Shown here: positions 19,342 to 56,297 of the stretch, piece after piece
How the letters are laid out: each line of letters begins with the position of its first letter
Numbering within the stretch: position 1 is the stretch's first letter
Notes under the pieces: generated by a model
Told to the model about the DNA's origin: nothing
Seen by the model: only the letters and a program-made list of their open reading frames with translations
Database searches by the model: none
Made by a program: the position numbers and the translations under genes
Assembly: GCA_963921275.4 (NCBI GenBank)
Contig: OZ001293.3
Coordinates: 6,784,001 to 6,848,000 of the forward strand
Direction: 5' to 3'
Length of the DNA stretch: 64,000 nt
DNA from: an uncultured Hormoscilla sp.
Lineage (GTDB): Bacteria > Cyanobacteriota > Cyanobacteriia > Cyanobacteriales > Desertifilaceae

Positions 19342-19356
19342 TTTTCCGGAACGGTG
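19342..19356 (-). mobile_element. 15-nt micro-insertion (type A) in sufR
   Basis: CACCGTTCCGGAAAA immediately before ATCGG. Confidence 0.75.
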
Positions 19357-19682
19357 CCATCTGTTTGCACGGGGTGCCACTCGGCCATGTAGCCTTCCGC
19401 TTTTCTCAGTTCGACTAAAGTGGCCACTCGCTCCCGCAATGAACCGGTGCTGAGGCGATCGCGATAGACCTTCGCCTTCCGTTCCCACTGCTTGCGCAGG
19501 ATCGAACTTACCTGGTCTTGTCCTACCGTCTCCGCCAGGGTATCCAGCAGGGACACCGCAAATTCGGCGTGGCTATTGCCGAAGCGATCGCGTCCCTGGC
19601 GACTGAGTTGATAGAGGTACTGGGGGCGTCCCATGGTCTGACCAGTCTCTCCTGGCCACCCCTTCGCTACTTGCTGGTCGAT

Positions 19683-19706
19683 TTTTCGGACCGTCCTCGG
19701 TGCGAT
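19683..19706 (-). mobile_element. 24-nt micro-insertion (type C variant) in sufR
   Basis: ATCGCACCGAGGACGGTCCGAAAA inside a CGATCG target. Confidence 0.75.
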
Positions 19707-19908
19707 CGATCCGGCAGCCTGCAAGTCCTTGAGGTGACGACGGATAGCTTGGGGGCTAATCCCAGATATTGGGCCATTTCCTGAGCCGTTGCTTGACCTT
19801 GCTTGAGCAAATATTGTAGAATGCCTTGTTTGGTGGAGGATTGCTGGGTGGTTGTCATCGTCTTCACAAAACTTTACTTGGCGAACGGCAAAAAAAACTT
19901 GACTTAAA

Positions 19909-19963
19909 CAACACATATGTTACTAAACTATCCTAAGATAGGAGTTAAGCAACAAATAGGTTG
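19909..19963. promoter_or_regulatory. Paired SufR operators
   Basis: CAAC-N6-GTTA at 19909 and CAAC-N6-GTTG at 19950, in the sufR/ftrC-suf divergent intergenic region. Confidence 0.8.
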
Positions 19964-20003
19964 TTTAACCTATTATACCCAGTTTCTTAGATAGGTCACC
20001 TGA

Positions 20004-20363
20004 ATGAACTCAGCAAACGGCACCAAACAAGCAACAGAGAAGAGCCTGGAAGCGATGCGGCACTTCTCGGAGAAATACGCTCAACGAACCAGCACCTACT
20101 TCTGCTCGGATCTCAGCGTCACCGCTGTGGTTGTAGAAGGACTAGCGAAGCACAAGGATGAGTTGGGTGCGCCCCTATGTCCTTGCCGTCACTACGAGGA
20201 CAAACAGGCAGAAGTGGCAGCGGCCTACTGGAATTGCCCCTGCGTGCCCATGCGGGAACGCAAAGAATGCCACTGCATGCTATTCCTGACACCAGACAAC
20301 GACTTTGCTGGCGATATGCAAAAGATTACGGCTGACGAAATTCGATCCCATACCAGTCATTGA
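20004..20363 (+). CDS. ftrC: Ferredoxin-thioredoxin reductase catalytic subunit
   Basis: CPCRHY, WNCPC and ECHCMLF motifs. Confidence 0.97.
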   Translation: MNSANGTKQATEKSLEAMRHFSEKYAQRTSTYFCSDLSVTAVVVEGLAKHKDELGAPLCPCRHYEDKQAEVAAAYWNCPCVPMRERKECHCMLFLTPDNDFAGDMQKITADEIRSHTSH

Positions 20364-20453
20364 GACAGTAGGGGAAATTTAGCCAGTAACTGGCAGCCCC
20401 CGATTGTGCTTTACCCCATTCCCACTCCCTGGCAATATTGAGAGAACACCAAG

Positions 20454-21893
20454 ATGGCTACCAGCGTTAAAACCTTAGTAAATCAACCCTACAAGTACGG
20501 CTTCGTCACTGATATTGAAACGGATACCATCCCTCGCGGCTTGAGTGAGGATATGGTGCGCCTGATATCGGCTAAAAAAGAGGAACCGGAATTTATGCTG
20601 GAATTTCGCCTCAAAGCTTACCGCAAGTGGCTGACGATGACAGAACCTACTTGGCCCCATGTCAGCTATCCCCCGATCGACTATCAGGACATTATCTATT
20701 ATTCAGCGCCGAAACAGAAAAAGGAAAAGCTGAATTCTCTCGATGAAGTGGATCCGGCCCTGCTAGAAACCTTCGAGAAGCTGGGTATCCCTTTATCCGA
20801 GCAAAAGCGTCTCTCTAATGTCGCCGTAGATGCCGTCTTCGATAGCGTCTCGATCGCCACCACCTTCAGAGAGAAACTGGCGAAGGAGGGAGTAATCTTT
20901 TGCTCGATCTCGGAAGCGGTAAAGGAATATCCCGAATTGGTCGAGAAGTATCTAGGCAGCGTGGTGCCAGCGGGCGATAATTACTTTGCAGCTCTCAACT
21001 CAGCCGTGTTCAGCGATGGTTCCTTTGTATATATTCCCAAAAATACGAAATGCCCGATGGAGTTGTCCACCTACTTTCGGATCAACAGCGGCGACACGGG
21101 ACAGTTCGAGCGTACACTGATTATCGCTTCCGAAGGCAGTAAAGTTTCCTATCTAGAAGGCTGCACCGCCCCGATGTACGACACCAACCAGTTGCACGCA
21201 GCAGTAGTAGAACTGGTCGCCCTGGATAATGCGGAAATCAAATATTCTACAGTGCAAAACTGGTACGCTGGGGATGCCAACGGCAAGGGTGGGATTTACA
21301 ACTTTGTCACCAAGCGGGGATTGTGTAAAGGGGTCAATTCCAAGATTTCCTGGACCCAGGTAGAAACGGGTTCGGCGATCACCTGGAAATATCCCAGCTG
21401 CGTATTAGTGGGGGATAACTCCGTGGGCGAGTTTTACTCCGTGGCCCTGACCAATAATAAGCAGCAAGCTGACACGGGCACTAAGATGGTGCATATCGGT
21501 AAAAACACTCGCAGCACGATTATTTCCAAGGGCATATCTGCTGGCAACTCCAAGAATAGCTATCGGGGTTTGGTGAAAGTTGGTCCGCAGGCAAAGGGGG
21601 CACGTAACTATTCTCAGTGCGACTCGATGCTAATTGGGGATAACGCCGAGGCGAACACTTTTCCCTATATCCAGGTGCAAGAGAATACTGGTAAGGTAGA
21701 ACACGAAGCTTCAACCTCCAAGATTGGAGAAGACCAACTGTTCTATTTTGCTCAACGGGGCATTTCGGCAGAAGACGCTGTTTCGATGATGATTAGTGGT
21801 TTCTGTAAGGATGTATTCAATCAGTTGCCGATGGAATTTGCTGTGGAAGCTGACCGGTTGTTGAGCCTGAAGTTAGAAGGTTCGGTTGGGTAA
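20454..21893 (+). CDS. sufB: Fe-S assembly scaffold SufB
   Basis: [14 protein letters not shown] and EHEASTS motifs. Confidence 0.99.
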
Positions 21894-21909
21894 AGATTAA
21901 CTTTAATCT

Positions 21910-22070
21910 GGTTCCCAGGCAGATCCTGGGAACCAAGTATGAGGCTCCCACCTCTAGTCACTCTCTGGTTTTCTGTCAGCATATGTGGGGAGGCAGAGCC
22001 TCAAAAAGAACGTTCCCAGGCGGGAGCCTGGGAACGAGAAAAATGATGGCTCCCGCCAGGGAACGAGAAA
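21910..22070. repeat. GTTCCCAGG/CCTGGGAAC palindromic repeat cluster
   Basis: Repeated palindromes between sufB and sufC; also near 17460-17500. Confidence 0.7.
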
Positions 22071-22091
22071 ATATATCAGAAGAGGTAAGGA

Positions 22092-22895
22092 ATGATCGTT
22101 GAAAACAGCGAAGTTATTTTGTCTGTCCGGAATTTAAAGGCGGATGTGGATGGTACCCAGATTCTTAAGGGTTTGAATCTGGAAATTAAGGCTGGAGAAA
22201 TCCATGCTATTATGGGACCGAATGGATCGGGAAAGAGTACCTTTTCTAAGGTGTTAGCAGGTCATCCAGCTTACGAGGTAACTGGCGGAGAGGTACTCTT
22301 CAAAGGAGAAAATCTGCTGGAGATGGAACCGGAAGACAGGGCTGTGGCAGGAGTGTTTCTGGCTTTTCAGTATCCGATGGAAATTCCAGGGGTTAGCAAT
22401 CTAGATTTCTTGCGGGTGGCTTACAATTCCCGCCGCAAGCAACAGGGACTGGAAGAGTTAGATGCTTTTGATTTCCAAGATTTGGTAGAAGAAAAGCTAG
22501 AGGTAGTGAAGATGAATCCGGCTTTTTTGAACCGGAGTCTTAATGAGGGCTTTTCTGGTGGAGAGAAGAAGCGGAATGAAATTCTGCAAATGGCTTTACT
22601 GGAACCGACATTGGCAATTCTGGATGAGACAGATTCTGGTTTGGATATTGATGCTTTGAAGATTGTCGCTTTCGGGGTGAACCAGTTGGCAAAACCAGAA
22701 AATGCTACTCTCATGATTACCCACTATCAAAGGTTACTCAATTATATTGTCCCCGACTACGTTCACGTGATGGTAGGTGGACGGATTCTGACTACTGGCG
22801 GGAAGGAATTGGCCCTGGAATTGGAGTCCCGTGGTTATGATTGGGCGATCGCTCCAGATGCAGAAGATGCAGTAAAGGTAGGTGCAGCAGTATGA
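22092..22895 (+). CDS. sufC: Fe-S assembly ATPase SufC
   Basis: [18 protein letters not shown] and DETDSGLD motifs. Confidence 0.99.
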
Positions 22896-24274
22896 GTATA
22901 GCTTCTGTTGAAAGGATTGTGGATGACTCAAAGCGCGATCGCTATCTGATAGAGTTGCTGCAAGAACGTCGCTCACTGAATACGCAAGCAATGAACGCGG
23001 AAATGACGGCGTGGTTGCAAGCAATTCGAGAACATGCGGCGGTGTTAGTGACGGAAAGTATTTTTCCGACTAAGCGGGATGAAGAATGGCGGTTTACGGA
23101 CTTGTCGCCCTTGTTGGCGGTGGAGTTTGCAGGGGTTAGTGGCGATAAGGTATCCTCTGTCAGGGAATTGAGTCTCGCCGAAGCGGATAGTAGTTGCTTG
23201 GTATTTGTCAATGGCATTTATGCACCGCAGTTGTCGGATGTAAGTGGGTTGCCAGAAAATGTGTTTGTGGGTAATTTGCTGGCAGGCAAGATCCCACAAG
23301 CAGAGTTGAAAAAATATCTGGCCAAGCAACAGGGGGCTGAGGAGGTATTTACATTACTTAACACGGCGAGTCTGACGGATGCGGCTATAGTTTGGGTGCC
23401 GAAAAATCAGGTAGTTTCGCAACCTATTCATTTGCTGTTTATCTCAACTAGGGGCGAGGTGGCGACTATTTCTCAGCCTCGCTGTCTGGTGGTAGCGGAA
23501 GCGGGTAGTAGTTTAACCATAGTTGAAGATTACACCGCAGCGGCGAATTGCCCGGATGCCCTGCTTCAGAACCCCTATTTCACTAATACAGTGACGGAAA
23601 TTTGGGTGGGGGAAAATGCTGAGGTCAACCACACGAGAGTGCAACGAGAAGCTGGCGTGGCTTTTCATATTGGTAAAAGCGCGATCGCCCAAGCCCGGGA
23701 TAGCCGCTATACTTGTAATGCCATTAGCTTGGGGGCCAGGTTATCTCGGCATAATCTGGAAGTATGGCAAAATGGTGAGGGTACTCAGACAACTCTCAAT
23801 GGCTTGACCCAGATTTCGGGCCAACAGCTGGCAGATACCCATAACGCGATCAGCTACAATCATGCCAATGGAACTAGCAAGCAGCTGCATAAGTGCATTG
23901 TAGATGGCAAAGCCCATGCAGTCTTTAACGGCAAAATCTTTGTCCCCAAACCCGCCCAGCTAACAGATGCGGCACAGTTAAATCGTAACTTATTACTGTC
24001 GCCTCAAGCCCGGGTGGATACTAAGCCTCAGCTAGAGATTACTGCTGATAATGTCAAATGCGCTCACGGTGCCACTGTCGGTCAGCTAGACCCAGAGGAG
24101 GTATTTTATCTGCAAAGTCGCGGTTTAAACCGGGAAACTAGCCGCAATTTGCTAGTTGATGCATTTGCTGGAGAAATTCTCGATCGCATTCCCGTGGCTT
24201 CCTTAAAGATAAGCCCCCACGCCCGAACCCTAAAGGGTCCGGCTACACGAACAAATCCCGCCTGCGCGGGCTAA
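22892..24274 (+). CDS. sufD: Fe-S assembly protein SufD
   Basis: EEWRFTDL and [18 protein letters not shown] motifs; ATGA overlap with sufC; last ~20 codons look repeat-derived. Confidence 0.96.
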
Positions 24275-24300
24275 TAGGTATCTCCAACATGCCAAGGATG

Positions 24301-24392
24301 AGCCATTCGCAATCAGCCATTCACAATTTTCAATTAGCCATTAGCGATTAGCCATTAGCCATTCACAATTAGCCATTCCCAATTCACCATTT
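24301..24392. repeat. Degenerate heptamer tandem repeat (AGCCATT/CACAATT)
   Basis: STRR-type array between sufD and sufS; a similar (CAATTAA/CAATTGA) array lies at 32174-32215. Confidence 0.75.
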
Positions 24393-24401
24393 GCAAAGAT
24401 T

Positions 24402-25667
24402 ATGATGACTCTCACTCAGGAAATAACTATTGCTGCATTAACTCGCGGTGACTTCCCTATTTTGCAGCAGGAAGTTAATGGTAAACCTCTGGTTTATCTG
24501 GATAATGCTGCTACTTCCCAAAAGCCGATCGCTGTTTTAAATACTTTGCGGGATTATTACTCGGAGTATAATTCTAACGTGCATCGAGGCGTTCATACCC
24601 TCAGCGCCAAGGCAACAGATGCTTATGAGGGGACGCGGGATAAAATTGCCAATTTTATCCATGCTGCGGTGCCGGAAGAAATTGTTTACACCCGCAATGC
24701 TAGTGAAGCGATTAATTTAGTCGCCTACAGTTGGGGCTTGAATAATTTACAAAAGGGAGATGAAATTATCCTCTCGCTGATGGAACATCACAGTAATTTG
24801 ATTCCCTGGCAGATGATTGCTCAAAAAACTGGTGCAGTGCTCAAGTTTGTGGAACTGACTGCTAATGAGGAATTAGATTTAGATCATTTTAAGTCTCTGG
24901 TTTCCGATAAGACAAAACTGGTGGCTGTGGTTCATGTTTCTAATACGCTCGGTTGTATTAATCCCGTACATAAAATTTGTGCGATCGCTCATCAATATGG
25001 GGCAAAAGTGTTAATTGATGCTTGCCAAAGTATCCCCCATATGGTAGTTGACGTGCAGGCGATTGACTGTGACTGGCTGGTGGCTTCCGGACATAAGATG
25101 TGCGCCCCCACGGGCATTGGGTTCCTGTATGGAAAACGGGAATTACTGCGATCTATGCCGCCATTTTTGGGCGGTGGCGAGATGATTGCCGACGTGTTTC
25201 TGGAACATGCTACCTATGCAGATGTGCCCCATAAGTTTGAGGCGGGAACTCCGGCCATTGGAGAGACGATCGCCTTGGGTGCAGCGGTAGATTACCTGAC
25301 AAACATTGGCATGGAGAAAATTCACACCTACGAAGCCGAATTGACAGCTTATTTATTCGAGCAATTGGGTAAAATACCGGAAGTGCAAGTTTACGGACCG
25401 CAACCGAAAGCTAATGGGGAAGGAAGGGCTGCATTAGCATCATTTACAGCTGGAGACGTTCACCCCCACGACCTGTCTACAATTTTAGACCAAGCTGGGG
25501 TAGCAATTCGGGCAGGACATCATTGCACGCAGCCATTACATCGGGCCTTGGGGGTGCAGTCAACTGCCAGGGCGAGTTTGTATTTCTACAACACCCGGGA
25601 AGAAATTGACCTCTTCATCGCCGCATTGCAGGAAGCTGTAGAGTTTTTTGGCAGCATTTTCGGTTAA
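24402..25667 (+). CDS. sufS: Cysteine desulfurase SufS
   Basis: [16 protein letters not shown] and RAGHHC motifs. Confidence 0.99.
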
Positions 25668-25719
25668 AATGGTAGGGTGGGCAATGCCCACCTTCCTGTC
25701 GCTATATGGTGAAAAATTA

Positions 25720-26557: not shown

Positions 26558-26613
26558 GGTTGGCAATTTCAGATGTAGTTAAAATGACTCTGTGTTACAA
26601 TTAAGGTAAATCA

Positions 26614-30681: not shown

Positions 30682-32130
30682 ATGTCTCAAGATTTTGATT
30701 ACGATTTGGCGATTATCGGTGCAGGGGTGGGCGGACATGGTGCTGCGATACATGCTGTCAGCTGCGGACTGCACGTGGCAATAATGGAAGCAGGAGAGAT
30801 GGGAGGAACCTGTATTAATCGCGGTTGCATTCCCTCAAAAGCCCTGCTGGCAGCAGCAGGACGGGTGCGAGAACTGCATGATGCCCACCATCTCAAAACT
30901 TTGGGCATACAAATAGCCGGTGTGGAGTTCGACCGCCAGGCGATCGCGGACCATGCGGGTAACATCGTTAGCAAAATACGGGGGGACATGACTAATAGTC
31001 TCAAACGCCTGGGGGTAGATACGATCAAAGGTTGGGGTAAGCTAGCGGGTCCGCAAAAGGTAACAGTGGCCACGGATGCAGGGGAGAAAACCATTACGGC
31101 CAAAGATATCATCCTGGCACCGGGTTCGGTCCCCTGGGTACCTCCAGGGATTGAAATAGATGGCAAAACAGTCTTTACTAGCGATGATGCCTTGAAGCTA
31201 GACTGGCTACCACCTTGGGTGGCGATTATCGGCAGCGGCTATATTGGCTTGGAGTTTTCCGACATCTACACCGCCTTAGGCTGCGAAATTACCATGATCG
31301 AAGCCCTAGACCAGCTGATGCCAGCTTTTGACCCGGATATTGCTAAGTTGGCCAAGCGCGTGCTGATCGATCCTCGTGATATAGAAACTAAGGTGGGCAT
31401 GCTGGCGAAAAAGGTGACTCCGGGTTCGCCAGTAGTAATTGAACTGGCAGATGCGAAAACGGAAGAAGTGGTAGAGGTTCTAGAAGTAGATGCTTGTCTG
31501 GTGGCGACGGGACGCATCCCCGTGGCTAAAAACATGGGGTTGGAATTATTAGGTGTGGAACTGGACCGCAAAGGCTTTATTCCCGTTAATGGCAAAATGG
31601 CAGTGTTGGCGGACGGCGAACCCGTACCCCATTTGTGGGCCATTGGCGACGCAACTGGTAAGATGATGCTGGCCCACGCGGCATCGGCCCAAGGCATTAC
31701 GGTGGTGGAAAATGTTTGCAGGCGCGAACGCTGCGCGAAAAATCAGGAAGTAGACTATAGCAGTATCCCCGCAGCAGCCTTTACTCATCCAGAAATTAGC
31801 TATGTGGGTATGACTGAACCTCAAGCCAAGGAATTGGGTGCAGTCGTGGGATTTGAAGTGGCCTCAGTACGGACCTACTTTAAGGGTAACTCTAAGGCGA
31901 TCGCCTCTGGGGAAACGGACGGGATAGCCAAAGTTATCTATCGTCAAGATACGGGAAAACTGCTGGGAGTCCACATTCTGGGCGCCCACGCCTCGGATCT
32001 GATCCACGAAGCAGCAGCGGCGATCGCCTCACGTCAGTCAGTTAACACCTTGGGCTATCTAGTTCACGCCCATCCCACCCTCTCAGAAGTCCTGGACGAT
32101 GCCTATAAACGGGCCATGTCTCATGCGTAA
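30682..32130 (+). CDS. lpdA: Dihydrolipoamide dehydrogenase
   Basis: GGTCINRGC redox disulfide and HAHPTLSE motifs. Confidence 0.98.
31727..31741 (+). mobile_element. 15-nt micro-insertion (type B), in frame in lpdA
   Basis: AACGCTGCGCGAAAA at GCG^ATC; same 15-mer on the minus strand at 54894-54908. Confidence 0.78.
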
Positions 32131-33556: not shown

Positions 33557-33605
33557 GTTTGTAGTGAGGACGGAAGTCCTCACTACAAACCACGCTGCGC
33601 GAAAA
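33557..33605. repeat. REP-like palindrome followed by a 15-nt type B element
   Basis: GTTTGTAGTGAGGAC-GGAA-GTCCTCACTACAAAC, then CACGCTGCGCGAAAA^ATC. Confidence 0.75.
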
Positions 33606-33827
33606 ATCAGAAAAATCAGAACGTAATTCATTTGGGTTTGAGGCAATTTGTTGACTAGAAATCAGAGAGGAGCACCTGTCGAACTCACGTCCATCAGGCG
33701 ATTCCCCGCAGGGGAAGTCCGCAGCCAAAGGTTTGCCCATTTGCAGCACTAGGGATGTCCCAAAAGCAGCACATCAGCATAAAGCAGAGAAATGAAAAAC
33801 AACAATCGTCAACAAATTAGTCGCATT

Positions 33828-34406: not shown

Positions 34407-34759
34407 TTGGCTTTCATCTCAATCAACTTAATCCCATTTCTTCTTTAATTATGCAATGGCGGTAAACTGTGTACAATCTGCTGGGTTTCCAGGCTCACCC
34501 GTACAATACGCTTCACTAGATCCAAGATATAGCGGGGGTCAGAAGACCAGTCGTTGGGGTCGTTGGTGATGCCACTCTTCTTGTCTTTGGTAACTTGGTA
34601 GCGATCCATAATCCACTCAAGGGCAGATCTGTCGCAAACCTTATACTCGTAAGCTTCTAAAGGGATATTCTGAATCTGGATCTTGCTGTTATAGATGATG
34701 GTGGTTTTATCAACCTGACGGTTATGCTTACCAAAGGTCATCTTACTGACTCGATAATC

Positions 34760-34774
34760 TACCGTTCCGGAAAA
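34760..34774 (+). mobile_element. 15-nt micro-insertion (type A)
   Basis: TACCGTTCCGGAAAA^ATCGG; reads DFSGTV in the host frame. Confidence 0.75.
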
Positions 34775-36954
34775 ATCGGTGTACTCCTTCACGGGGTAAG
34801 GTTCGATGGTTTCATAGTTCAGATGCCAGTGGGCTAAGTCTCGTCCCGCTTTACTGAATGTCCAGAAGTCAGCAGCATAGGGGATGCGGGGTAACATTTT
34901 CTTTAAGTCAGCAGCAAAGCGGGTTTTGTATTCAGGACTGTGGAGAATGCCGTAGACGTAATAGAAAATGTCTTCTTTGGTGATGTCCGTGTCGCTGTAA
35001 GTGGTTTGGAAGTCGGTCAGTATTGCATTATGGATGTTCTCGTTGCGGAGGTATTCATCCTGTTTTGCTGTTGCGTTGCCCGGGTCGCGGTAGCGAAAGA
35101 GGTCGCCCAAGTCTGATTGTTGGGTGTAGGTGTAAAGGGGAAAACATTGAGAAGGTGTAAGACAATTAATGTCGAGTAATGTATCCGATACCAAAGCTGA
35201 AAAGTCTTTAGTTGCCCCCAGTCCAGTTACACAAATTGCTAAGTTTTCCTGATTCTCTTTCGGGAAAATCTTAGGCATTTGGGAAGTCCTGTGATTCCAA
35301 TGGTTATTGAAATAAACCCACTGCCGACAATAAGGGCGATATATCCCTTTAACTAAAGAACTAGTTCTAATTGATATGTTATGAATTTTTCTAAATCCTG
35401 CTTAATTCCGCTTGACCAGTTGATTTTTTTCGGATCATTATCAACAAAGTTATCAATACTTGGCTTATCCCCCTTAATGGACTGATACCGTTTAACCTGC
35501 TGATTATAAAAATCAATCATCCTGCCCATGTTAGCGGAAACTGCCTCACGGGAGAAGTTGTAACACCAGGCATCACGACTTGTTTCAAGCCCTCTTGAAT
35601 ATAAATCAAATATCGTCTTAGCTGTTGTATTTGTCTTATCCCCCAGTGAAGTGAATGCTTCAAATGCCGGATCGCGCTGGTTTATCCAGTCATGGTTGTT
35701 GTTGGGATCGATCACCCTCCACTCTATTCCTGTAATACCACCAGACTGAGCAATGATGCTTAACTTCTCCTCACGGCTGAGATAATCTCCAATATCATGG
35801 TAAAGCAATTCACAAGCTCGGGTGTGTTCTGGATTTTTCACCAGTAGGGTGATGGCGATAGTAGCACGGCTTCCAGAGCAAAAAATCTGCCCACCTTCCC
35901 GTCGAGATGTCTCACCGGAGGTGCGCTGATTCCCCCGTAAGTTGAAGCAATAGATCCGGCTAAACTCGTCTACAAAGCATTTTCGCAAGCCATCCATTGC
36001 GTTATTGTCAATAAATGAACCGTTGGTGACGAAACAGATGATGCCTTTGCCCTGGATGCGATCGCTTGCCCAGCGTATTGCCCGAATATAGGAATCATAA
36101 AGGCTGTTTTTGTTGGTAGCAGTCGAGTATTTAGCATAGGTTTCCCTAATGCGGTCATCCAACTGGGGGTATTTCAAATTCTTATTATTGTCATTCTCGC
36201 TACTTTACCCCGCCGAATAGGGAGGATTACCAATAATTACCCGAATCTCTTGCTGTTTCTGACTGACTACCCGTTGGTTATTCTCAGGAAACATCCGATC
36301 CAGTAACGTCCCCTCATTCTCAAACATTTGGAAGGTATCCGTGAGCACAATCCCCTCAAAGGGTTGATATTCCCCGCCATGTAACCCGTGGTAAGTTTCC
36401 TCAATATTGATGGCCGCGATGTAGTAGGCGAGTAGAACAATCTCGTTGGCGTACAACTCCTGCTTAAACTTCCGTTCTAAGTCCTCCGGTTTGATTAACC
36501 CACTTTGCAGTAACCGCGCTATAAACGTCCCCGTTCCCGTGAAGGGGTCAAGGATATGAACGCCTTCATCGCTTAACCCCACTCCCAACTCTTGCCGCAG
36601 GGCCTGGTCAGCACTATTGACAATAAAGTCCACCACCTCAACGGGAGTGTAAACGATTCCCAAGCGATCGGTTAATCGAGGGAATGCCCCCCGGAAAAAC
36701 TTATCATACAGTTCGGTGATAATCTTCTGCTTCCCTTCGGCATTGTCTACCCCGGTGGCCCGTTCTCGGACAGAGTCGTAAAACTTCTCTAACTTGGCGG
36801 TGTCTTTATTTAAGGATTTTCCTTCCAAGACCTCCAGCATGTTCTGCATAGCTTGAGAAACGGGGTTAAGTTCGGTGAAGGCATACCCTTCAAATAAAGC
36901 ATCAAAGACGGGTTTGGTAATCAGATGCTGGGATAACATCTCAATGGCATCATC

Positions 36955-36969
36955 TACCGTTCCGGAAAA
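36955..36969 (+). mobile_element. 15-nt micro-insertion (type A)
   Basis: TACCGTTCCGGAAAA^ATCGG; removal gives NPNVTDDDAIE. Confidence 0.78.
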
Positions 36970-38233
36970 ATCGGTAACGTTGGGGTTGATGTTGCTGTGC
37001 AATCCCGCGAGAAACTCGTCAAAGGCAGCGCGGGGTTTGGCATCTGCACCTGCAAGTAATGCCTGAATGCGGGAGATGTGACCCTCAGCAATTTTCGCTA
37101 CATCTTGGGCCCAATCTTCCCAGTAGCGGCGATCGCCACATTTCTGCACGAGCTTGGCATAAATCGCATCCCGCCATTCTTCCAGTTCCGGAAAATGCAG
37201 TTTCAGTTGCCTGACTTCGGGTAAGTCGGAAGGGCGATCGCCTACGGTTTCTGTATCATCTCTGGGAGTCCCCCCAACACCAATGACATCAATTTCCGGT
37301 GGCCGATTTTTATTAAACTCAATCTTATTGACCATCGCCTTGAAGCGATCGTCATGGGCGCGAAGGGCCTGCAATACTTGCCAGATTACCTTGTATTTCT
37401 GATGATCCTTGAGAGCCTGTTCTGGAGGGATATCAGCCGGAATACCCACTGGTAAAATGATATAACCGTATTTCTTTCCTTCCGATTTTCGCATCACTCG
37501 CCCCACAGATTGCACCACATCCACTACCGAGTTACGGGGGGTGAGGAACATCACCGCATCTAACGCGGGCACATCCACCCCTTCCGAGAGACATCGAGCA
37601 TTAGAAAGAATGCGGCAGGTATTACCACTGGTTTCAGCTTTCAGCCAATCCAGTTTAGCATTGCGTTCTAGGGAGTTCTGGGTTCCATCTACATGATCAA
37701 GCTCACAGTTAAGGATTTCTTCATCAGGATGGGCGGTTTGGTACTGCTCAATGATTTGGGTGAACAGTTGGGTAATGCGTTCAGAGTCTTTAATGGAGCG
37801 AGAAAAGGCAACAGCACGGCGCATGGGAGCATTATCGCCATCTAAAGTTGTGTCCCCTCTACTGGGGGTACCCATCCGCTTGGATAGTCCATTCCAGCAG
37901 CCAGTAATCTTAACCGCATCTTCTAGATTAAGTTCATTATTACGATCCGCTAACTGATGCTGGAATGTGGTACTGACATCCTTTTCATCAACTGCTAACA
38001 CCATCACCCGATAATCAGTGAGTAGTCCTTTACTAACCGCTTCCCCAAATCCCAGATAGTGAAACTCGGGTCCATACAACTGCTCATCATCCATGGAGCA
38101 AATCACAATCTCATTCTCCTGGGCCGTTTTTTTGGCATTATCCCCATACAGTCGGGGAGTAGCAGTCATGTATAGGCGCTTCTTACCCTTGATAAATTCT
38201 TGGTTATGTACCCGCACAAAATAGGATTCTTCT

Positions 38234-39068
<835 letters not shown>

Positions 39069-40833: not shown

Positions 40834-41035
40834 ATTATGGCCTGACATCCGTTAGCTGAACAAATTTGATTGGTGCAGTATATAGCCAGTGGTAAAAAAA
40901 CCGGTCTCTCAGAGAACCAGGGTTTGCAGATACCGCAAATTGTTTCTATCCCCGTCTGTGGAGAGCAGACTTAGGGCTGATACCGGTCATATCCAGATTT
41001 TATCGTCAATAGTCGATGTGAATTATCGGTACAAT

Positions 41036-41050
41036 TTTTCCGGAACGGTA
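41036..41050 (-). mobile_element. 15-nt micro-insertion (type A), intergenic
   Basis: TACCGTTCCGGAAAA followed by ATTG. Confidence 0.65.
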
Positions 41051-42224: not shown

Positions 42225-42822
42225 ATTTAATTTGTTAATCTTATTACTGAAGATTGCTAAAATTTTGGCAATATTTATATCTTTGGCATCGGAGATCGTC
42301 AATTTCTCGCGCTCGATCGCGACAGTGCGATCGTCAAGCTGAAGGAAGCGCTAGACACGACCATTAGTAACAGCACCATAGATGCGTACCGTTCCCGAAA
42401 AATCGGTAATCTTGTCCCTAGCTTGGTTAAACCGCTGTGCTGCTACCATCTCAGCAATACATTGTCCCAAACCTGAATTTGTACTATCATTTTTTGCTTC
42501 TACAATTGCTATCACTGGTGCCTCGATTTCCAGGATAAACTCAGAGGCACTCACAATATAATCACAATAGCCATTTAGTCCTTGAGTCACATCTACATTA
42601 AAATCCCTGCCAGAAAATAAGCTAATTTTGCCATTAAATATCTCTCTTATCTCCATTAGCATCGGCGCAATAATCAACTCAGAACGTGCTTTTTCTGTAT
42701 CGTTATCAAAGGCAAGTCGCTTGGTTCAACTAGATCTATCTGAGGAAACAGATTAACCAGATTAATACTAAGATCGAAGCTGGCTTTGACTTGACTGACA
42801 GTCTTAAAATCGCTGTAAGTTA
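42225..42822 (-). pseudogene. Degraded tandem paralog of 43642-44283
   Basis: Near-identical DNA with an internal deletion, TGG>TAG and no start; carries a type A element at 42387-42401. Confidence 0.85.
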
Positions 42823-43641: not shown

Positions 43642-44283
43642 TCAACCAAAATTTATTTTTTCTATCTGGTTACTGAAAATCGATAAAATCTTAGCAACAT
43701 TTATATCTTTGGCATCCTTGATCGTCAATTCCTCGCGATCGATCGCGACAGTGCGATCGTCAAGCTGAAGGAAGCGCCAGACACGACCATTAGTAACAGC
43801 ACCATAGATGCGTACCGTTCCGGAAAAATCGGTAATCTTGTCCCTAGCTTGGTTAAACCGCTGTGCTGCTACCATCTCAGCAATACATTGTCCCAAACCT
43901 GAATTTGTACTACCATTTTTGGCTTCTACAATTGCGATCGCTGGTGCCTCGATTTCCAGGGTAAACTCAGAGGCACTCACAATATAGTCACAATAGCCAT
44001 TTAGTCCTCGATTCACATCTACGTTAAAATCCCTGCCAAAAAATAAGCTAATTTTGCCATTAAATATCTCTCTTATCTCTATTAGCATTGGCGCAATAAT
44101 CAACTCAGAACGGGCTTTTTCTGTATCGTTATCAAAGGCAACTTGCAAATTACGCTTCAGGGTAATTTTCAGGTAGTCGCTTGGTTCAACTAGATCTATC
44201 TGAGGAAACAGATTAACCAGATTAATACTAAGATCGAAGCTGGCTTTGACTTGACTGACGGTTTTAAAATCCCTGTAAGTCAT
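43642..44283 (-). CDS. Cyanobacterial PD-(D/E)XK nuclease-like hypothetical protein
   Basis: EKARSELIIAP, GYCDY, IVEAKN, GLGQCIAEMVAAQ and IYGAVT motifs; type A element at 43813-43827. Confidence 0.85.
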   Translation of the reverse strand: MTYRDFKTVSQVKASFDLSINLVNLFPQIDLVEPSDYLKITLKRNLQVAFDNDTEKARSELIIAPMLIEIREIFNGKISLFFGRDFNVDVNRGLNGYCDYIVSASEFTLEIEAPAIAIVEAKNGSTNSGLGQCIAEMVAAQRFNQARDKITDFSGTVRIYGAVTNGRVWRFLQLDDRTVAIDREELTIKDAKDINVAKILSIFSNQIEKINFG

Positions 44284-44398
44284 ACATTCCATACCAAACC
44301 CAATGGGAGTTTTATTCCCCCTCATCCGCTAAGATAGCATTATCTCATATGATGTTTTGGTAGAATAGCAAACCCGTTATCCCCGAGGAGGAAATCTG

Positions 44399-48925: not shown

Positions 48926-49328
48926 CAGTTATCTCTTCCTTACGAATGCGCAAATCGCCCGATCGCCCGCAAAGAACACAGTTAAGGAGGGCGTATCCTC
49001 TTGTTGGGGGAACGGGGAACGGGGAACGGGAAACAGGAAACTCGCGCGCAGGGGGCGGCGAGGGGATCACCAGCGAACCTGGAAACATCTCAGTCGTGCC
49101 TTATTTTTGGTACTCCCCCAAAGCTACCGATGCGCCCAGTTAAGGAGTCTGGTGGGGGCTACGATTTTCCATAGAGCCCACCACTTTTTAGAGGGCGATC
49201 GACCTTTACAATTGCTATGCAATCAAAAGGGGCAAGCTGCTAAAATTAGGGATTGCTCTTAAAGCTAAACTCACCTTCTTTGAGTTCGTTAATCTTATGC
49301 CATTGCTTGATGGAGGATTCAAGATGGA

Positions 49329-51056: not shown

Positions 51057-51123
51057 GGTCACACTGTTCCCTTCCATATTACAAAACGAAGTGCCGAATG
51101 TGGGTTACATTAATTCAACGGCG

Positions 51124-51392
51124 GGCGTTGCACAATCACACCGATGATGGGCATAGTTGGCAGTTGTTTTCAACTTAGACTACAAGCCATTTTCAGTTAT
51201 GCGCAAAAAATGGTGGCGTTGCACAACTCCGGGATGATAAGGGTTGAAAATTGTTAATTGTCAATGGTCAATTGAAATAGTTATAGATGTTCATGAATAG
51301 ACAAATAATGATTTTCAATTTTCAATTTTCAATTTTCAACCATTGACTGCTATCATCCCAAAAATGTGCAACGCCAAAATGGTATCATCCCC
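51124..51392. mobile_element. Older IS1-derived MITE with a younger MITE (51215-51375) inserted
   Basis: Inner duplication AAAATGGT; the outer copy resembles 26983-27092. Confidence 0.85.
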
Positions 51393-51522
51393 CGTGCTAT
51401 GCCTAATTTTGCACAACCACTTAACTACGGCTATGCGATCGGGTAATCGTCCACCGTCATATCCGAGTGCCACCCGTGCCCCCCGAGACCAGATAGCAGA
51501 TCCAACTACTTTCAAATTTCAA

Positions 51523-52239
51523 TTAACAATTTTCAACAACTCCTAGTTCTCGCAAAACATATCCGACTCCTCGGACAGTTTGAATCAAGCGCTGATTCCC
51601 CTGGTCTTCAATTTTGATGCGCAAATAGCGAATATAGACCTCAATCACATTTGATTCTCCCAAAAAGTCGTAACCCCAGACCTGTTCCAAAATCTGTTCC
51701 CGGGTTAATACCTCGCGGGGGGAGGACATCAAGCATTTGAGCAATTCAAATTCCTTCATAGTCAGGTCGATCGCCCGTCCGGCGCGGATAGCTTTGCGGG
51801 TAGTCAAGTCTAGGACCAGGTCGCTAAAGCGTAACTGTTCCGTCTCACTCTTGTCAGGCTGTAAGTAAAGGCGCAGCAGCCTTAAAAGTTCGGAAGTGCG
51901 ATAGGGTTTGAGGAAATAGTCATCAGCGCCTGCTTCCAGACAAGCTACCCGATCGTCCACCCGATCGCGAGCCATCAAAATCAGCATCGGTGTCACATCT
52001 CCCGCCTGACGCAGTTGGCGGCAGAGGTCTAACCCCGAATCTCCTGCCAGCATCCGGTCGATTACAATCAAAGCTGGCTGGAGTTTTCGGGCCAGTTGCA
52101 TACCCGCGATCGCATCAGAGCCCACCACTGGATCGTAACCCGATTCTTTTAAATCCCGACTTATTTCCTCAGCTAGAGTAGGATCGGTTTCAATCAGTAA
52201 AATCGAGGGGGGATGGGAATGGTAGGCAAGGTTCATCAT
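51523..52239 (-). CDS. nblR: OmpR-type response regulator NblR
   Basis: Atypical receiver N-terminus plus SNVIEVYIRYLR wHTH; position downstream of NAD kinase. Confidence 0.82.
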   Translation of the reverse strand: MMNLAYHSHPPSILLIETDPTLAEEISRDLKESGYDPVVGSDAIAGMQLARKLQPALIVIDRMLAGDSGLDLCRQLRQAGDVTPMLILMARDRVDDRVACLEAGADDYFLKPYRTSELLRLLRLYLQPDKSETEQLRFSDLVLDLTTRKAIRAGRAIDLTMKEFELLKCLMSSPREVLTREQILEQVWGYDFLGESNVIEVYIRYLRIKIEDQGNQRLIQTVRGVGYVLRELGVVENC

Positions 52240-52242
52240 CCT

Positions 52243-53169
52243 TTAGGGTAGTTCGACAGAAGTTGGTTTAGCAATATGGGGCAGACCCCAACCTAATTTT
52301 TCTCGGAGAATGCGGAAAAACTCCGGCGATTTTAACCGGATGAAGCGAGCTGTGTAAGGCGATCGCTCTACTAGCACCTCATCTGAGGGCAAAACATAAC
52401 ATCCTGCATTCCCATCTACTACCATCACCAGACGATTAGGAATGACTGGAAAAATTCTCACTGGATCGTTTTGACTAAACACCAAAGCTCGGGAGGCTAG
52501 AGAATGAGGGCAGATCGGCATCAATTGTAGCACCGGCACTCCTGGGGTGACCACTGCTCCTCCCGCGCTCAAAGAATAGGCCGTTGAGCCCGTTGGAGTC
52601 GATACAATCACCCCATCTGCCGCCATATCTACCGGTGTATGATGTCCCACTTGGATTTCAAAATGGCACATACTGGTCAACGGTTCCCGGTGCAGCACCA
52701 TTTCATTCAGGCACAGGGCCTCCCAGATGCAGGTCGAGCCGCGCGACACCTGTACTGTGAGCATCATCCTTTCTTCTATTTCATAATCACCTGCCATAAC
52801 TTTTTCCATGGTGATGGGCAGTTGATTGACATAGGTTTCTGTCAGGAAACCCATGTGACCAGTATTTACCGTTAGCAGCGGGATGTCGCAGGGGGCCACC
52901 TGACGAAAAGCCGACAGCACCGTGCCATCTCCCCCCAGCACCACCCCAAAACTCATCTCCTTACCGAAACCTGGGGGAATTAGCTGCTCTATGGGTGTAT
53001 GGCACACGGCTGCGCCTGGGCGATCGGGTTGAGAATAGCCAAGAATTCCTCCCACACCCGTCGTCACGCAGATATCCCAGCCCAAAGATGTCAGCTGAGC
53101 TTGTAACTCCCTGGCGACGCGACAAGCTACTGGTTTGATTTCGTTATATATTATCCCAGCTTTGGGCAC
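52243..53169 (-). CDS. nadK: NAD(+) kinase
   Basis: LGGDGT, LNE and [14 protein letters not shown] motifs. Confidence 0.97.
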
Positions 53170-53199
53170 GCTACCTACTACTCCTTGGGTTAAATCTGA

Positions 53200-54177
53200 C
53201 TAAAAACGAGATTTTAACGGCGTCTTTTTTGGCTTTTTGTTTTTCTGGCGCTGGTAATCTAATTCCTTCAGTTTCTGCAAAATGCGGCTGAAGTATTCTT
53301 GCATATAGGATTTGGTGGTTGTCGTTTCCGACGGGTCTAGTCCAAAGGTGCTGTATACTTCTTCCATAGAAGCACTCAGGGGTTTACCAGAACAGAGCAC
53401 TTCAGCAAAGGCCAATCGGTCAGCTACATTCCACGTCCACTGGAAAAACCGGGCCATTTGGCGCATCACACGCAAGAATGAAAGCGGCATCCGCGCTATC
53501 TTTGCCTCCCGATCGCTCAGTTTTTCGCATAAACGGATGATCTCATACCCGCTCATCGCCTGGGGACCTACAACTGGGAATGTTTTGCCTGCCGTTTCTG
53601 GAACCGTAAGGGCATGTACTGCGAACTTAGCGATGTCGATCGCATCCATAAAGGCAATTGGCGAAGCCTCACCGGTTACCCAAACCGTCTGATTCTCCAG
53701 GATGGGAATAGCGTATTGACTGACCAAGCCTTGCATAAAGCCTGCCAGCCGCAGCACCGTGTAATTCAGACCTGATTGTGCCAACAATATTTCCGTACAC
53801 CGTTTAATCTCCATTAATGGTACCTGTCGATACTTTTCGGCGTCCAGAATCGAGAAAAATATAAACCGGTCCACCCCCGCTGCTTTGGCTGCTTGAATTA
53901 GCGCCACCTTTCCTTCCCAGTCTACTTGTTTCACGCTCAGGGAATCTGTCGGTCGGGCCGTAGCTGCATCAATCACAGCCGTAATCTCCTCCAAGGCCGG
54001 AGGTAGACTTTTAGGGTCGCACAAGTTCCCCCGGACCAGTTCTGCTCCCCATTCTTTCAAAAATGCTGCCTTTCGGGGACTCCGCACTAGACAGTGGACT
54101 TGATAGCCCTCGTCTAGGGCCCTACGAGTCACCTGTCTTCCTAAGGTTCCAGTGGCACCTACAACCAATAAGCTCAT
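53200..54177 (-). CDS. ycf39: Ycf39 NAD(P)-binding PSII assembly factor (atypical SDR)
   Basis: GATGTLGRQ, AFLKEWGAEL and WNVADRLAF motifs. Confidence 0.93.
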   Translation of the reverse strand: MSLLVVGATGTLGRQVTRRALDEGYQVHCLVRSPRKAAFLKEWGAELVRGNLCDPKSLPPALEEITAVIDAATARPTDSLSVKQVDWEGKVALIQAAKAAGVDRFIFFSILDAEKYRQVPLMEIKRCTEILLAQSGLNYTVLRLAGFMQGLVSQYAIPILENQTVWVTGEASPIAFMDAIDIAKFAVHALTVPETAGKTFPVVGPQAMSGYEIIRLCEKLSDREAKIARMPLSFLRVMRQMARFFQWTWNVADRLAFAEVLCSGKPLSASMEEVYSTFGLDPSETTTTKSYMQEYFSRILQKLKELDYQRQKNKKPKKTPLKSRF

Positions 54178-54295
54178 GAGGTAATTTATTACAAATCGTT
54201 AACTTTTGATAAGATTTTATCATAAATCTTTACATTACGGAGATCGATCTCCAGGAGCCTACTTGCCACCAGCAGTATAAAGATACCAATATAAT

Positions 54296-54328
54296 CCTAG
54301 GGCAGCGGTTTAAATCACTGCCCCTAGG
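54296..54328. terminator. Hairpin, possible terminator
   Basis: CCTAGGGCAG...CTGCCCCTAGG. Confidence 0.45.
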
Positions 54329-54452
54329 CCCTAATTTACTTTAGCTGCGCATCTTTTCTCTGAGCAATGCTTAATGCCCTATATACATGGAGTATGCTGC
54401 GGTAATTAATCTCATATCTGTAGTTTATCAAAATATAACTAGTGATTAAATT

Positions 54453-54926
54453 ATGTCCGATTTTTCCGGAACGGTGCCTGAAGTAATTAAGTATCGACAG
54501 CTGCCGATCGGTCCGCGGACGGCCCGAAAAATCGCGTCGTCAGGTGGTGAGGCCCCTAACTGTGAGGTGCAGCATCCGGTGGATCTCGCGAACGTCCGCC
54601 AGCTACACTCCAAGCTGCTGCCGGTGGAAAAAGCCCAGCGGATGGCTGAGTTTTTCAGCTTGATGGGAGATGCCAACCGTTTGCGCATTCTATCGGTGTT
54701 GGCAATACGGGAACTCTGTGTCTGCGATTTGGCAGGATTGATTAAAATGAGTGAATCGGCGGTCTCCCATCAACTGCGAGTTTTGCGCTCAATGGGCCTG
54801 GTTAACTATCGCAAGCAGGGACGGAATGTTTTTTACTCTCTCTCGGACAGCCACGCGCTCAATATTTACCGGGAACTGCTTTCCCATCTCGATTTTTCGC
54901 GCAGCGTTCGACTGCCAGACACTTAG
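54453..54926 (+). CDS. ArsR/SmtB family metal-sensing repressor carrying three micro-insertions
   Basis: ELCVCDLA and SESAVSHQLR motifs; insertions at 54462-54476 (A), 54507-54530 (C) and 54894-54908 (B). Confidence 0.92.
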   Translation: MSDFSGTVPEVIKYRQLPIGPRTARKIASSGGEAPNCEVQHPVDLANVRQLHSKLLPVEKAQRMAEFFSLMGDANRLRILSVLAIRELCVCDLAGLIKMSESAVSHQLRVLRSMGLVNYRKQGRNVFYSLSDSHALNIYRELLSHLDFSRSVRLPDT

Positions 54927-54945
54927 GGGCGATGGCGGGCACGGC

Positions 54946-55000
54946 TTCCGGCGTCTTCCGCGTGCTCTTGTCCTGAAGGACTCGGCACGCGGAAGACACC
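54946..55000. repeat. Type D hairpin element, intergenic copy
   Basis: GTCTTCCGCGTGC..GTCC-TGAA-GGAC..GCACGCGGAAGAC. Confidence 0.8.
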
Positions 55001-55262
55001 GCGCCATCACGGGCTATTCGGTTTCTTCGGGACCCTGAATTTTGACCAACAAAAAGCCTAAGCCTAAACCTACCAGAATTAGGGTAGAGGAGAGAACTGC
55101 CGCATTAAAAATTTCACCGCCCATTGTTTGCTTTTTCCTTTAGAATGATGGTTTTGACAGCCTGAGATCTGCCCAGCTAGGGGAGAGTGCTGGCGCAGTT
55201 GCGGGGCTTACGGATGTATTGTAGAACAGTTTGACAGTCAAGGTAAGGAATAAAAAGAAAGT

Positions 55263-56297
55263 ATGCGCCCTAGTTTAGCTATAACTATGGGAGACCCGGC
55301 GGGTATTGGACCAGAGGTGATTCTCAAAGCCTTGGCCGACCCGAGAGTGACTGATAATTGCCAGGTGACGGTGGTAGGATCGGCCTCGGTGTTGCAGGAG
55401 ACTTACAACCGCCTGGCAGATCTGGGAGCACCCCTGGCCTCGCCAGACCAGTTTGCCCTCTTAGATCTGCCTGCTGATGGGAAAATCACTCCTGGCCTCG
55501 GAAATGCTGCCAGTGGGGCGGCTAGTTTTGCTTATCTGGAGACGGCGATCGCCCGGACTCTGGCTGGCCAGTTCCAAGCGATCGTGACGGGCCCGATCGC
55601 CAAGTCAGCTTGGAAAGCAGCTGGACATGATTATCCGGGTCAAACGGAACTGCTAGCGGACCGCGCGGGGGTGGATAATTTTGCCATGCTGTTCGCGGCC
55701 CGATCGCCCTACAATGGCTGGACTCCGATCGTGCTGCTAGCCACTACCCACATTCCCCTGCGCCAGGTGCCTGACGCCTTGACTCCGGCCTTGCTGAGTA
55801 GTAAGCTGGACTTGCTGGTTGATTGTTTGCGCTTTGATTTTGGGATCGATCGTCCCCGCATTGCTATTGCCGGTTTGAACCCCCACAGCGGCGAACAGGG
55901 ACAGTTAGGACTCGAAGAGCAAGATTGGTTAATTCCCTGGATCGAACAGCAGCGTCAGAACTGGCAAATAGTCATAGAAGGACCGGTGCCACCGGATACT
56001 CTCTGGGTTAAACCCGCCCAGGCGTGGTATCGCACCGTTCCGGAAAAATCGGACCGAAATTTTTCTGTTCCCGATGCCTATTTAGCACTGTACCACGATC
56101 AAGGTTTGATACCAGTGAAAATGCTGGCCTTCGATCGGGCAGTCAACACATCTATTGGTTTGCCGTTTGTGAGAACATCTCCCGACCACGGTACTGCCTT
56201 CGATATTGCGGGTAAAGGAGTAGCAAATGCTACTAGTATGAAAGCAGCTCTACAAGTAGCTACTGAGTTGGCATACCAGAAAAATGTCAAAATTTAA
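55263..56297 (+). CDS. pdxA: 4-hydroxythreonine-4-phosphate dehydrogenase
   Basis: [22 protein letters not shown] and [14 protein letters not shown] motifs; type A element at 56033-56047. Confidence 0.98.

Follow-up and report, generated by a model that had tools for sequence, protein, structure and literature searches.

Two families of non-coding 15-nt inserts, A and B, found in the window (the whole 64,000-nt stretch of DNA analyzed) and throughout its source genome, a cyanobacterial one that likely belongs to the sponge symbiont Hormoscilla, are likely non-autonomous mobile elements, and such a 15-nt hairpin element is likely among the smallest mobile DNAs known. The copies are present or absent between relatives at the target (A/C/T)^TC(G/A)G, i.e., H^TCRG, and the mechanism that we tentatively favor, at slightly less than an even chance, is that a site-specific strand-transfer enzyme cuts and joins them as single strands.

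Structure and Abundance of the Elements

All 11 copies listed in a preliminary description of the window were located in both orientations and proved real, namely, seven exact A copies, one A copy with one mismatch, and three B copies. The architecture A-stem3-TNC-stem3-AAAAA occurred 10 times in the window, versus a mean of 0.12 (maximum 2) in 150 Markov simulations. The genome-wide count against a control suggested in that description gave 185 A and 102 B cores in the source genome (about 300 sites together), whereas 0.57 and 0.62 cores, respectively, were expected by chance.

According to the register of empty alleles, the unit of both families is A-stem-TNC-stem-AAAAA, 15 nt in size, with a single hairpin of 9 nt (3-bp stem), a TNC loop in which only the middle base varies, and five A residues. 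The A run was five residues long in all A-tailed copies (286/286 in the source genome and 249/249 in relatives), and runs of 3, 4, or 6 were absent among them; consequently, the tail is templated. The stems were paired as CCG/CGG, CGC/GCG, and CGG/CCG, each unpaired combination being found at most three times, in agreement with the compensatory conservation of structure proposed earlier. The opposite strand of the element reads CYGA^TTTTT-hairpin-T, with four conserved letters 5′ of the cut and a GNA loop. In the B, D, and E hairpins (D and E being sister inserts), this strand is exactly GCGNAGC, a hairpin whose DNA form is far more stable than its RNA form, as stated in an excerpt of PMC13037366, whereas the A hairpin has a loop with G-C closure, described as the less stable form in an excerpt of PMC3201870. 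Viral contigs contained 23 single matches to the element.

The hairpin inserts form a family with a common target and sizes of 15, 22, 24, and 50 nt, in which A and B are the smallest members. The sisters C, D, and E are 22–24 nt in size, the A tail is absent in D and E, and the stems of the sister hairpins covary; the hairpin above the C-G foot comes in lengths of 9, 18, or 44 nt. The GNA loop is on the other strand in some sister hairpins and in either orientation in the 50-nt member. A related hairpin end was found in 180 of the 201 genomes of the order, and longer two-hairpin repeats across the order have the B hairpin as their terminal module, which makes kinship of B with the described small dispersed repeats (SDRs) likely. 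It should be noted that B is an independent 15-nt insertion unit rather than a fragment of a longer repeat. Among 75 indels of 30–6000 nt in 1.39 Mb, none was a larger autonomous element sharing these ends.

Insertion Sites and Target

Among the 126 non-identical anchored comparisons of A and B, 100 had a difference of exactly 15 nt, and these corresponded, after collapsing, to 62 independent empty sites for A and 8 for B, none of which had a target duplication. The 15-nt gaps anticipated in orthologs were thus found as clean insertions relative to empty sites, including those in sufR, lpdA, and pdxA, and the presence/absence of copies between relatives bears out the proposal of a recently mobile family. 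The conservation of target positions +1 to +4 was T89, C94, G65/A27, and G90, whereas the left side was weak. The base 5′ of the element was kept in 55 of the 62 empty A sites; it therefore belongs to the target, contrary to the earlier boundary (C/T)A...AAAA.

The preliminary description had the elements targeting GATC/HIP1, which would involve HIP1 methylation or recombination machinery, as for SDR5; we regard this as highly improbable. GA^TC was indeed found in most empty sites of B (5/8), C (8/10), and D (4/5), T-starting variants were found almost solely after A, and the empty lpdA site contains full HIP1. However, the empty A sites had GA^TC in 8/62 and HIP1 in 0/62 cases, the empty E sites had GA^TC in 0/17, and even in B, which prefers GA^TC, HIP1 was found in 1/8. 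About 15,480 CGATCGC words hold four B and no A copies, whereas CCT^TCGGA words hold A in 8 of 126 cases; nine genomes with 5,400–6,800 HIP1 have 0–1 modules, and one genome with 518 HIP1 has 46. These counts refute GATC/HIP1 as the target of A. The restoration of GATC in 7 of 11 copies held in the register used previously. However, the latter is shifted by one base, and in the empty-allele register GATC is restored in 2 of 11 (31728 and 54893).

Copies in the Window

The gene names sufR, lpdA, smtB-like (ArsR/SmtB family), and pdxA given previously were confirmed with NCBIfam. In sufR, type A (19341–19355, minus strand) lies at GGC^TCGG, adds TVPEK, and is empty in relative G001 and filled in relatives G002–G004; a second insert in this gene, of 24-nt type C (19682–19705, minus strand), is absent in G001, the empty site being CGA^TCGA. 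Type B in lpdA (31728–31742, plus strand) lies at GCGA^TC, and this site is empty in G002–G004, in one of them with full HIP1; the structure search for lpdA gave no match at the strict cut-off used. Another B copy (33592–33606, plus strand) is intergenic, between ORFs, at ACC^TCAG. Two A copies, each adding DFSGT at TCT^TCGG, lie on the plus strand at 34761–34775 in ORF 34445–35278 and at 36956–36970 in ORF 36205–38217, both ORFs being on the minus strand. The designation of a restriction–modification gene drew one NCBIfam match, below the cut-off, for 36205–38217 and none for 34445–35278. The A copy at 41035–41049 (minus strand) is probably intergenic and has the atypical site TTT^TTGT. On the plus strand, the A copy at 43814–43828 adds DFSGT to ORF 43642–44325 (minus strand), and its empty site in G002–G004, GCT T^TCAG, is not GATC; the A copy with one stem mismatch (42388–42402, plus strand) lies in a duplicated copy of the same gene and represents the same event.

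The ArsR/SmtB-family ORF has type A at its start (54461–54475, minus strand; site TTCC^TCGG), 24-nt type C (54508–54531, plus strand), and type B near its end (54893–54907, minus strand; site CGA^TCGA). At the first of these, G002–G004 are 18 nt shorter (15 nt plus a neighboring 3 nt), and in the alignments the relatives read MSEEVIK instead of the predicted MSDPE; the B site is filled in G002–G004, whereas run X6 is 15 letters shorter there. In pdxA, type A (56034–56048, plus strand) adds TVPEK within a 14-residue stretch missing from the best-matching solved structure. This site is empty in G001 and in run X5, with the C kept (CGC^TCGG); although run X5 is close to the source genome, its flanking differences are mosaic, which is compatible with loss as well as with repeated gain or recombination. 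A further type C insert (3756–3779, plus strand; site CGA^TCGC) lies outside the range covered earlier, and all three type C sister inserts in the window had been overlooked.

Elements within Genes

About half of the copies lie in genes, often adding five amino acids to intact genes. Single-copy A sites were genic in 89 of 155 cases, compared with 12 of 50 for the 22/23-nt sister, which is consistent with the earlier suggestion that a codon-multiple length is tolerated in genes. Genic copies have two dominant reading phases, giving TVPEK and DFSGT, and the recurring peptides TVPEKS and DFSGTV are present in ORFs as described previously. The dominance of two phases points to selection, and we infer purifying selection as the cause of the bias. 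No transcription bias was found in genic A copies (42 sense versus 47 antisense). In-frame acquisition of the same five residues by core genes, with the reading phase acting as a filter, represents a route of protein evolution.

Clustering and Routes of Spread

The copies are clustered, with a median neighbor distance of 3.5 kb versus 15 kb in simulations, which may partly reflect tolerant regions. In G001, five of six TGC-loop copies had a TGC neighbor within 10 kb (p = 0.0003), and in a distant genome three TAC-loop copies lie within 4.3 kb, whereas loop-variant clustering within the source genome was not significant (p = 0.067). The copies of the cluster in genome G258 lie in chemotaxis-like genes; no enzyme gene was found beside this cluster among ORFs of at least 100 aa in the first 20 kb.

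Such local clustering, together with the predominance of the same strand in same-family pairs closer than 1 kb (30/42), would also be expected if the hairpin were copied without a dedicated enzyme, through template switching of host replication or repair between sites near each other, with the common TCRG as primer. The presence of related modules across the order regardless of Y1 content and a six-unit tandem array at C1 4116598–4116673 agree with this explanation as well. However, flank sharing in 48 A pairs closer than 1 kb did not exceed that of random pairs (1.15 versus 1.09 of 3 on the left and 2.71 versus 2.75 of 6 on the right), i.e., homology carried over from neighboring copies was not seen, which indicates that the target is recognized, not inherited. 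Four-letter homology also hardly accounts for the exact ends or for the spread of only this grammar, and template switching is considered improbable.

Copying of a short structured RNA onto a CYGA nick by a reverse transcriptase (RT), most likely of expanded group II introns, with ligation without duplication, is somewhat less improbable but still unlikely. An RNA route was reportedly proposed for SDRs by Elhai et al. in 2008. In the source genome, about 411 intron 5′ ends and at least 57 matches to RTs were counted, and each of the five genomes of the genus contains RTs. The A tail is directed toward the conserved target, as it would be in target-primed copying, and C-to-T stem variants that preserve G-T pairing on the A-tail strand are more numerous than those of the reverse type (15 versus 4, although most are not independent). 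On the other hand, the tail is invariantly five A and missing in D and E, no series of truncated copies was found in the indel catalogue, and the local variant clusters speak against a diffusing template; genome G028, with at least 57 RT matches, has none of the element patterns. A poly(A)-type tail or target-primed retroposon was rejected because the run is always five A and target duplication is absent. For group II introns, neither a shared target nor physical linkage was seen: CYGA stands at the end of just one of the 323 distinct intron 5′ exons, none of the intron ends adjoins an element (the smallest distance is about 25 nt), and the distance of the elements to introns (8.0 kb) was no shorter than that of the background (6.8 kb). 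No Rfam match was found at the inserts.

Single-strand cut-and-join, the mechanism favored here, would begin with existing A and B copies being cut out or copied as single-stranded DNA and acting as local donors; a site-specific strand-transfer enzyme would then join the unit into nearby H^TCRG targets. This enzyme is predicted to work like HUH transposases of the IS200/IS605 type, and its recognition features would be the flanks and the C-G hairpin foot. The 15-nt exactness of most differences, the one-sided target without duplication, the lack of transcription bias, and the local spread are consistent with this mechanism, and, according to excerpts on IS200/IS605 (PMC3333891, PMC6006769), these elements cause no duplication, use a tetranucleotide on the 5′ side, and recognize hairpins strand-specifically. 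Against it, no candidate enzyme fits, the A loop is G-C closed, the strand of the GNA loop varies in sisters, and 15 nt leave no room for guide tetranucleotides or two 20–25-nt hairpins. Replication-strand bias was not seen in the source genome, which has no clear replichores, and 20 stretches of genome G427 gave no replichore.

Among 24 Y1 loci of five genomes, none had A, B, or C within 1.5 kb. The Y1 copies of the source genome are degenerate, frameshifted, or fragmentary, except for one RAYT flanked by other repeats, and no Y1 subclass intact in all five carrier genomes was found. Candidates were compared between the 22 module-richest and 21 module-free genomes, a profile based on the hairpin end of the sisters rather than on the 15-mer. 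The Y1 subclass 1.2-like (13/22 versus 1/21) was rejected because genome size and kinship confound its distribution, the two richest genomes lack it, and it is degenerate in the source genome; the Y1 2.1-like protein (11/22 versus 3/21) and the intact RAYT (5/22 versus 1/21; not found in G002 or G004) fitted worse. The IS91 family had no match in five genomes, and its control likewise matched nowhere. These three Y1/RAYT candidates and intron targeting failed to fit, so that, in agreement with the earlier description, no mobilizing enzyme was identified. A broader proposal, which is possible but rather doubtful, is that an undescribed order-wide cyanobacterial enzyme scarlessly moves any CYGA^T...T-framed hairpin as single-stranded DNA, with A, B, and the 22–50-nt sisters as substrates; the 15-mer would then be the minimal cargo and the smallest autonomous-in-cis mobile DNA known, steadily writing the same five-residue linkers into host proteins.

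Comparison with Known Systems

The mode of movement of cyanobacterial small dispersed repeats has been an open question since 2008, and a 2026 paper still calls the function of SDR5 unknown. Here the size of the unit is reduced to 15 nt and its ends are base-exact; the target rule comprises four letters, the hairpin cargo is interchangeable, and about 100 sites occur naturally in both the empty and the filled state. The unit thus offers ready substrates for an enzyme search, and an enzyme that inserts short hairpins scarlessly and site-specifically could serve as a tool.

Rickettsia palindromic elements, about 150 nt long, are much longer than A and B and have neither a common sequence with them nor a comparable target rule. 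They are similar in being palindromic repeats in frame in protein-coding genes (PMC3733652, excerpt). REP/REPIN sequences mobilized with RAYT/TnpA-REP are, as excerpted from PMC8266576, PMC3333891, and PMC3733652, likewise short hairpins with hundreds of copies, local clusters, and some copies within ORFs; however, A and B have no GTAG tag 5′ of the hairpin, their junctions are not C|T, about half are genic, and no RAYT is flanked by them, the intact one being flanked by another repeat. Non-autonomous IS200/IS605 derivatives (PMC6006769, PMC3333891, excerpts) share with A and B the lack of duplication, a tetranucleotide located 5′ to the cut (in A and B, CYGA^ of the strand with the GNA loop), a hairpin, and fixed polarity, whereas A and B are far shorter, have one 9-nt hairpin instead of two 20–25-nt subterminal hairpins with guide tetranucleotides, and lack a linked or consistently present TnpA.

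The closest likeness is to SDR1–8 of Nostoc, dispersed repeats of 21–27 nt (PMC4390886, PMC5861425, PMC13756078, excerpts): both are tiny non-coding cyanobacterial inserts with precise insertion, a compensatory-stem hairpin, nesting, and an unidentified enzyme. Empty orthologous sites, the mark of recent mobility in SDRs, were found for A (62) and B (8). In size, A and B are below the SDR range, whereas the sisters C, D, and E (22–24 nt) are within it. According to an excerpt of PMC5861425, no SDRs were found outside Nostocaceae, whereas A and B are present outside this family. SDR5 is confined to HIP1, between the third and fourth base of which it is inserted (PMC4390886, excerpt), whereas A and B cut H^TCRG, with HIP1 in 0/62 A and 1/8 B empty sites. 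No description of these 15-mers was found in the literature searched, including passages of two Hormoscilla genome papers (PMC6520454, PMC7313196), although supplements or Elhai 2008 could hold such sequences. Judged by the published descriptions of SDRs, as excerpted, A and B would be a new and smaller form of these Nostoc repeats, with the target H^TCRG rather than HIP1 only.

Copy number and distribution of the 15-nt inserts

All 11 copies reported in the preliminary description were present in the window. For hairpin insert A these comprised seven exact copies and an eighth with a mismatch in the stem; the remaining three were copies of insert B. The window held 10 occurrences of the A/B hairpin architecture, against an average of 0.12 over 150 simulations. 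In the genome under study, G000 (7.03 Mb, HIP1-rich), the cores numbered 185 for A and 102 for B, every one on the main contig C1, versus 0.57 and 0.62 expected under a fifth-order model. Contig C3 of this assembly (31 kb, 17.6% G+C) was unlike the rest and is likely of non-cyanobacterial origin.

Exact A and B patterns were found in all four genomes of the same genus, G001–G004 (25–148 copies of A and 21–51 of B), and in none of 36 other relatives. Searching 350 other genomes of the phylum with a degenerate 15-mer pattern gave 1–3 matches in each of six; in two of the six the copies looked genuine, with a different loop middle and the correct target. At least 108 records contained the 15-mer pattern, and 67 of the 80 listed were named Hormoscilla. 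In a genome of another family (G258), the only A copies were three with a TAC loop, lying within 4.3 kb of one another in chemotaxis-like genes (L233:9900-14500).

Empty sites and boundaries

Alignment of the window sites with orthologues from relatives that were about 90–95% identical revealed the anticipated 15-nt gaps in sufR, lpdA and pdxA. The sufR and pdxA sites were empty in G001, and the lpdA site and that of the gene at 43814 were empty in G002–G004; the 54461 site was 18 nt shorter in G002–G004, the insert at 54893 was present in all three of these genomes, and the loci compared contained no orthologue of four window sites. Of the gene names proposed earlier, sufR, lpdA, the ArsR/SmtB regulator and pdxA were supported by NCBIfam, whereas the restriction-modification label was weakly supported. 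Sequencing run X5 lacked exactly 56034–56048 (pdxA), with the C before the insert retained, and run X6 lacked 15 letters at 54894. Across the relatives, ancestry in the pdxA region (55720–56330) was mosaic, and a breakpoint fell close to the insert.

Within G000, a paralogous site differing in length existed for 56 of 322 copies, and for 32 of them it was 15 nt shorter. In about 1.4 Mb of relatives, a non-random sample picked largely around their own copies, the length difference was exactly 15 nt in 100 of 126 anchored non-identical A/B comparisons, and these differences reduced to 62 A sites and 8 B sites. The inserted unit was A-CCG-TNC-CGG-AAAAA (A) or (A/T)-CGC-TRC-GCG-AAAAA (B), with no target duplication; filled and empty alleles were letter-identical from −4 to +5 in 27 of the 62 A sites. 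A and B represent a real, recently mobile 15-nt element.

Target site

The empty A sites had the consensus (C/G)(C/T)^TC(G/A)GA (^, insertion point). Their −1 base was retained in 55 of 62 and was A in just 10, so the register used previously was one base off; GATC, restored by removal in 7 of the 11 window copies in that register, is restored in 2 of 11 in the corrected one. The supposed targeting of GATC/HIP1 was not borne out for A (GA^TC in 8 and HIP1 in 0 of 62 empty sites) and held in part for B, which preferred GA^TC (5 of 8 empty sites). Among about 15,480 CGATCGC words, 4 held B and none held A, and A was present in 8 of 126 CCT^TCGGA words. Two sites contained different inserts in different genomes, indicating that good targets are reused. 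Filled and empty alleles differed at +3 in 14 of 62 A sites (the filled allele mostly having G), and A replaced T at +1 in 4 of 22 events of the sister inserts D and E, which counts against perfect precision; these differences may reflect overwriting, wobble-position drift or ascertainment. The target of the 15-nt element is H^TCRG, not GATC/HIP1.

Inserts within genes

By our own rough gene calls (5,422 genes), A lay in a gene at 89 of 155 single-copy sites and B at 31 of 68 sites; the corresponding figures were about 68% for background targets and 12 of 50 for the 22/23-nt E. The orientation of A in genes was even (42 sense, 47 antisense). The dominant reading phases added the peptides TVPEK (30) and DFSGT (42), in excess of the target-preference prediction (p = 4e-7), and this bias probably reflects selection against other peptides. 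The pdxA insert lay within a stretch absent from the best-matching solved structure. A helicase/methylase-like gene at 34445–38217 (minus strand), possibly decaying, was split over three ORFs, with two A inserts and an intron upstream. A group II intron copy at 38235–39068 (minus strand) belonged to an expanded set on C1 of G000, with about 411 5′ ends, mostly of about 850 nt without an ORF, and at least 57 reverse transcriptase (RT) matches.

Related hairpin inserts

Of the 184 catalogued indels, 47 were 15 nt long, and 43 of these 47 were A or B. The same target was shared by sister inserts C (24 nt, 74 copies), D (24 nt, 113 copies) and E (22–23 nt, 110 copies); in addition, a 50-nt form, in which A and AAAAA enclosed a 44-nt hairpin, was present in 8 copies. 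C, D, E and the 50-nt form all began and ended with A, and in D and E the A run was replaced by a second hairpin, which was that of B. With the three C copies of the window included, the number of inserts was two in sufR and three in the SmtB-like ORF. Of 201 genomes of the order, 180 contained the B-type hairpin end, with up to 426 copies (0–5 in reversed controls), and its abundance did not track HIP1; in five genomes, which represented four families, loci showed the two-hairpin build with varied first stems. The 15-nt element is the smallest member of a widespread hairpin family resembling the small dispersed repeats (SDRs).

Other hairpin arrangements were also observed. On C1 of G000, six units of a T-starting B variant formed a tandem array (4116598–4116673), via slippage or re-insertion at a regenerated target; hairpins of roughly 41–45 nt with a 3-bp top stem, ANG loop and AAAA (e.g., 220789, 231349 and 235544) numbered about 40, and A and B were nested inside hairpins related to this type. 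A GA^TC site near 5732112 of the same contig carried a 13-nt hairpin insertion that is missing from G002 and is perhaps a shortened 22-nt palindrome. In a further genome (G307, C1), hairpin ends formed long same-strand runs (1.42–2.37 Mb, plus; 2.45–3.01 Mb, minus), a possible replication bias. When strand bias was examined in G000 and G427, neither genome gave a replichore signal.

Insertion mechanism

The element ends were exact, the target was one-sided, the A run was invariantly A5 and the loop middle was variable. Insertion via RT, for which the enzyme supply in G000 is ample, is unlikely given the lack of a matching target, of tail variation and of co-occurrence. A/B copies were clustered along the genome, loop variants clustered locally in G001 (p = 0.0003), and same-family pairs under 1 kb favoured the same strand. 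No flank sharing was seen between neighbouring copies; host template switching, from which such sharing is expected, appears quite improbable.

On the opposite strand, the cut was preceded 5′ by the target CYGA and the loop sequence was GNA, the hairpin of B, D and E being GCGNAGC. This hairpin is very stable as DNA and far weaker as RNA (PMC13037366). The G-C loop closure of A is of the weaker type (PMC3201870). By analogy with HUH-enzyme transposition, as outlined in PMC6006769, PMC3333891 and PMC8266576, these traits would fit single-strand transposition by an HUH-type enzyme, a tentative reading with somewhat less than an even chance. Against it count the GNA loops of some sisters on either strand and the Y1 proteins tested: none had the elements at its flanks, and none was intact in every carrier. 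Two transposase-like genes were observed on C1 of G000: a Y1-like gene with a degenerate HUH motif (241782–242700), flanked by arrays of GTAG-tagged repeats, and an intact RAYT-like gene unseen by Pfam search (2007193–2007724, L330), bordered by a palindromic repeat family of its own.

Comparison with known systems

No account of the A and B 15-mers was found in the literature searched, supplements aside. The features defining REP/RAYT elements, group II intron derivatives and retroposons, as well as the end features defining IS200/IS605, were not found in A and B. Nostoc SDRs are 21–27 nt in size. As described in papers that cite the original study, SDR5 is 21 nt long and without known function (PMC4390886, PMC5861425, PMC13756078), inserts between HIP1 bases 3 and 4 (PMC4390886) and was not found outside Nostocaceae (PMC5861425). 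Compared by such descriptions rather than by sequence, A and B are alike to SDRs in working but differ in their 15-nt size and in not following HIP1; the nearest known kind is the small dispersed repeats of Nostoc.
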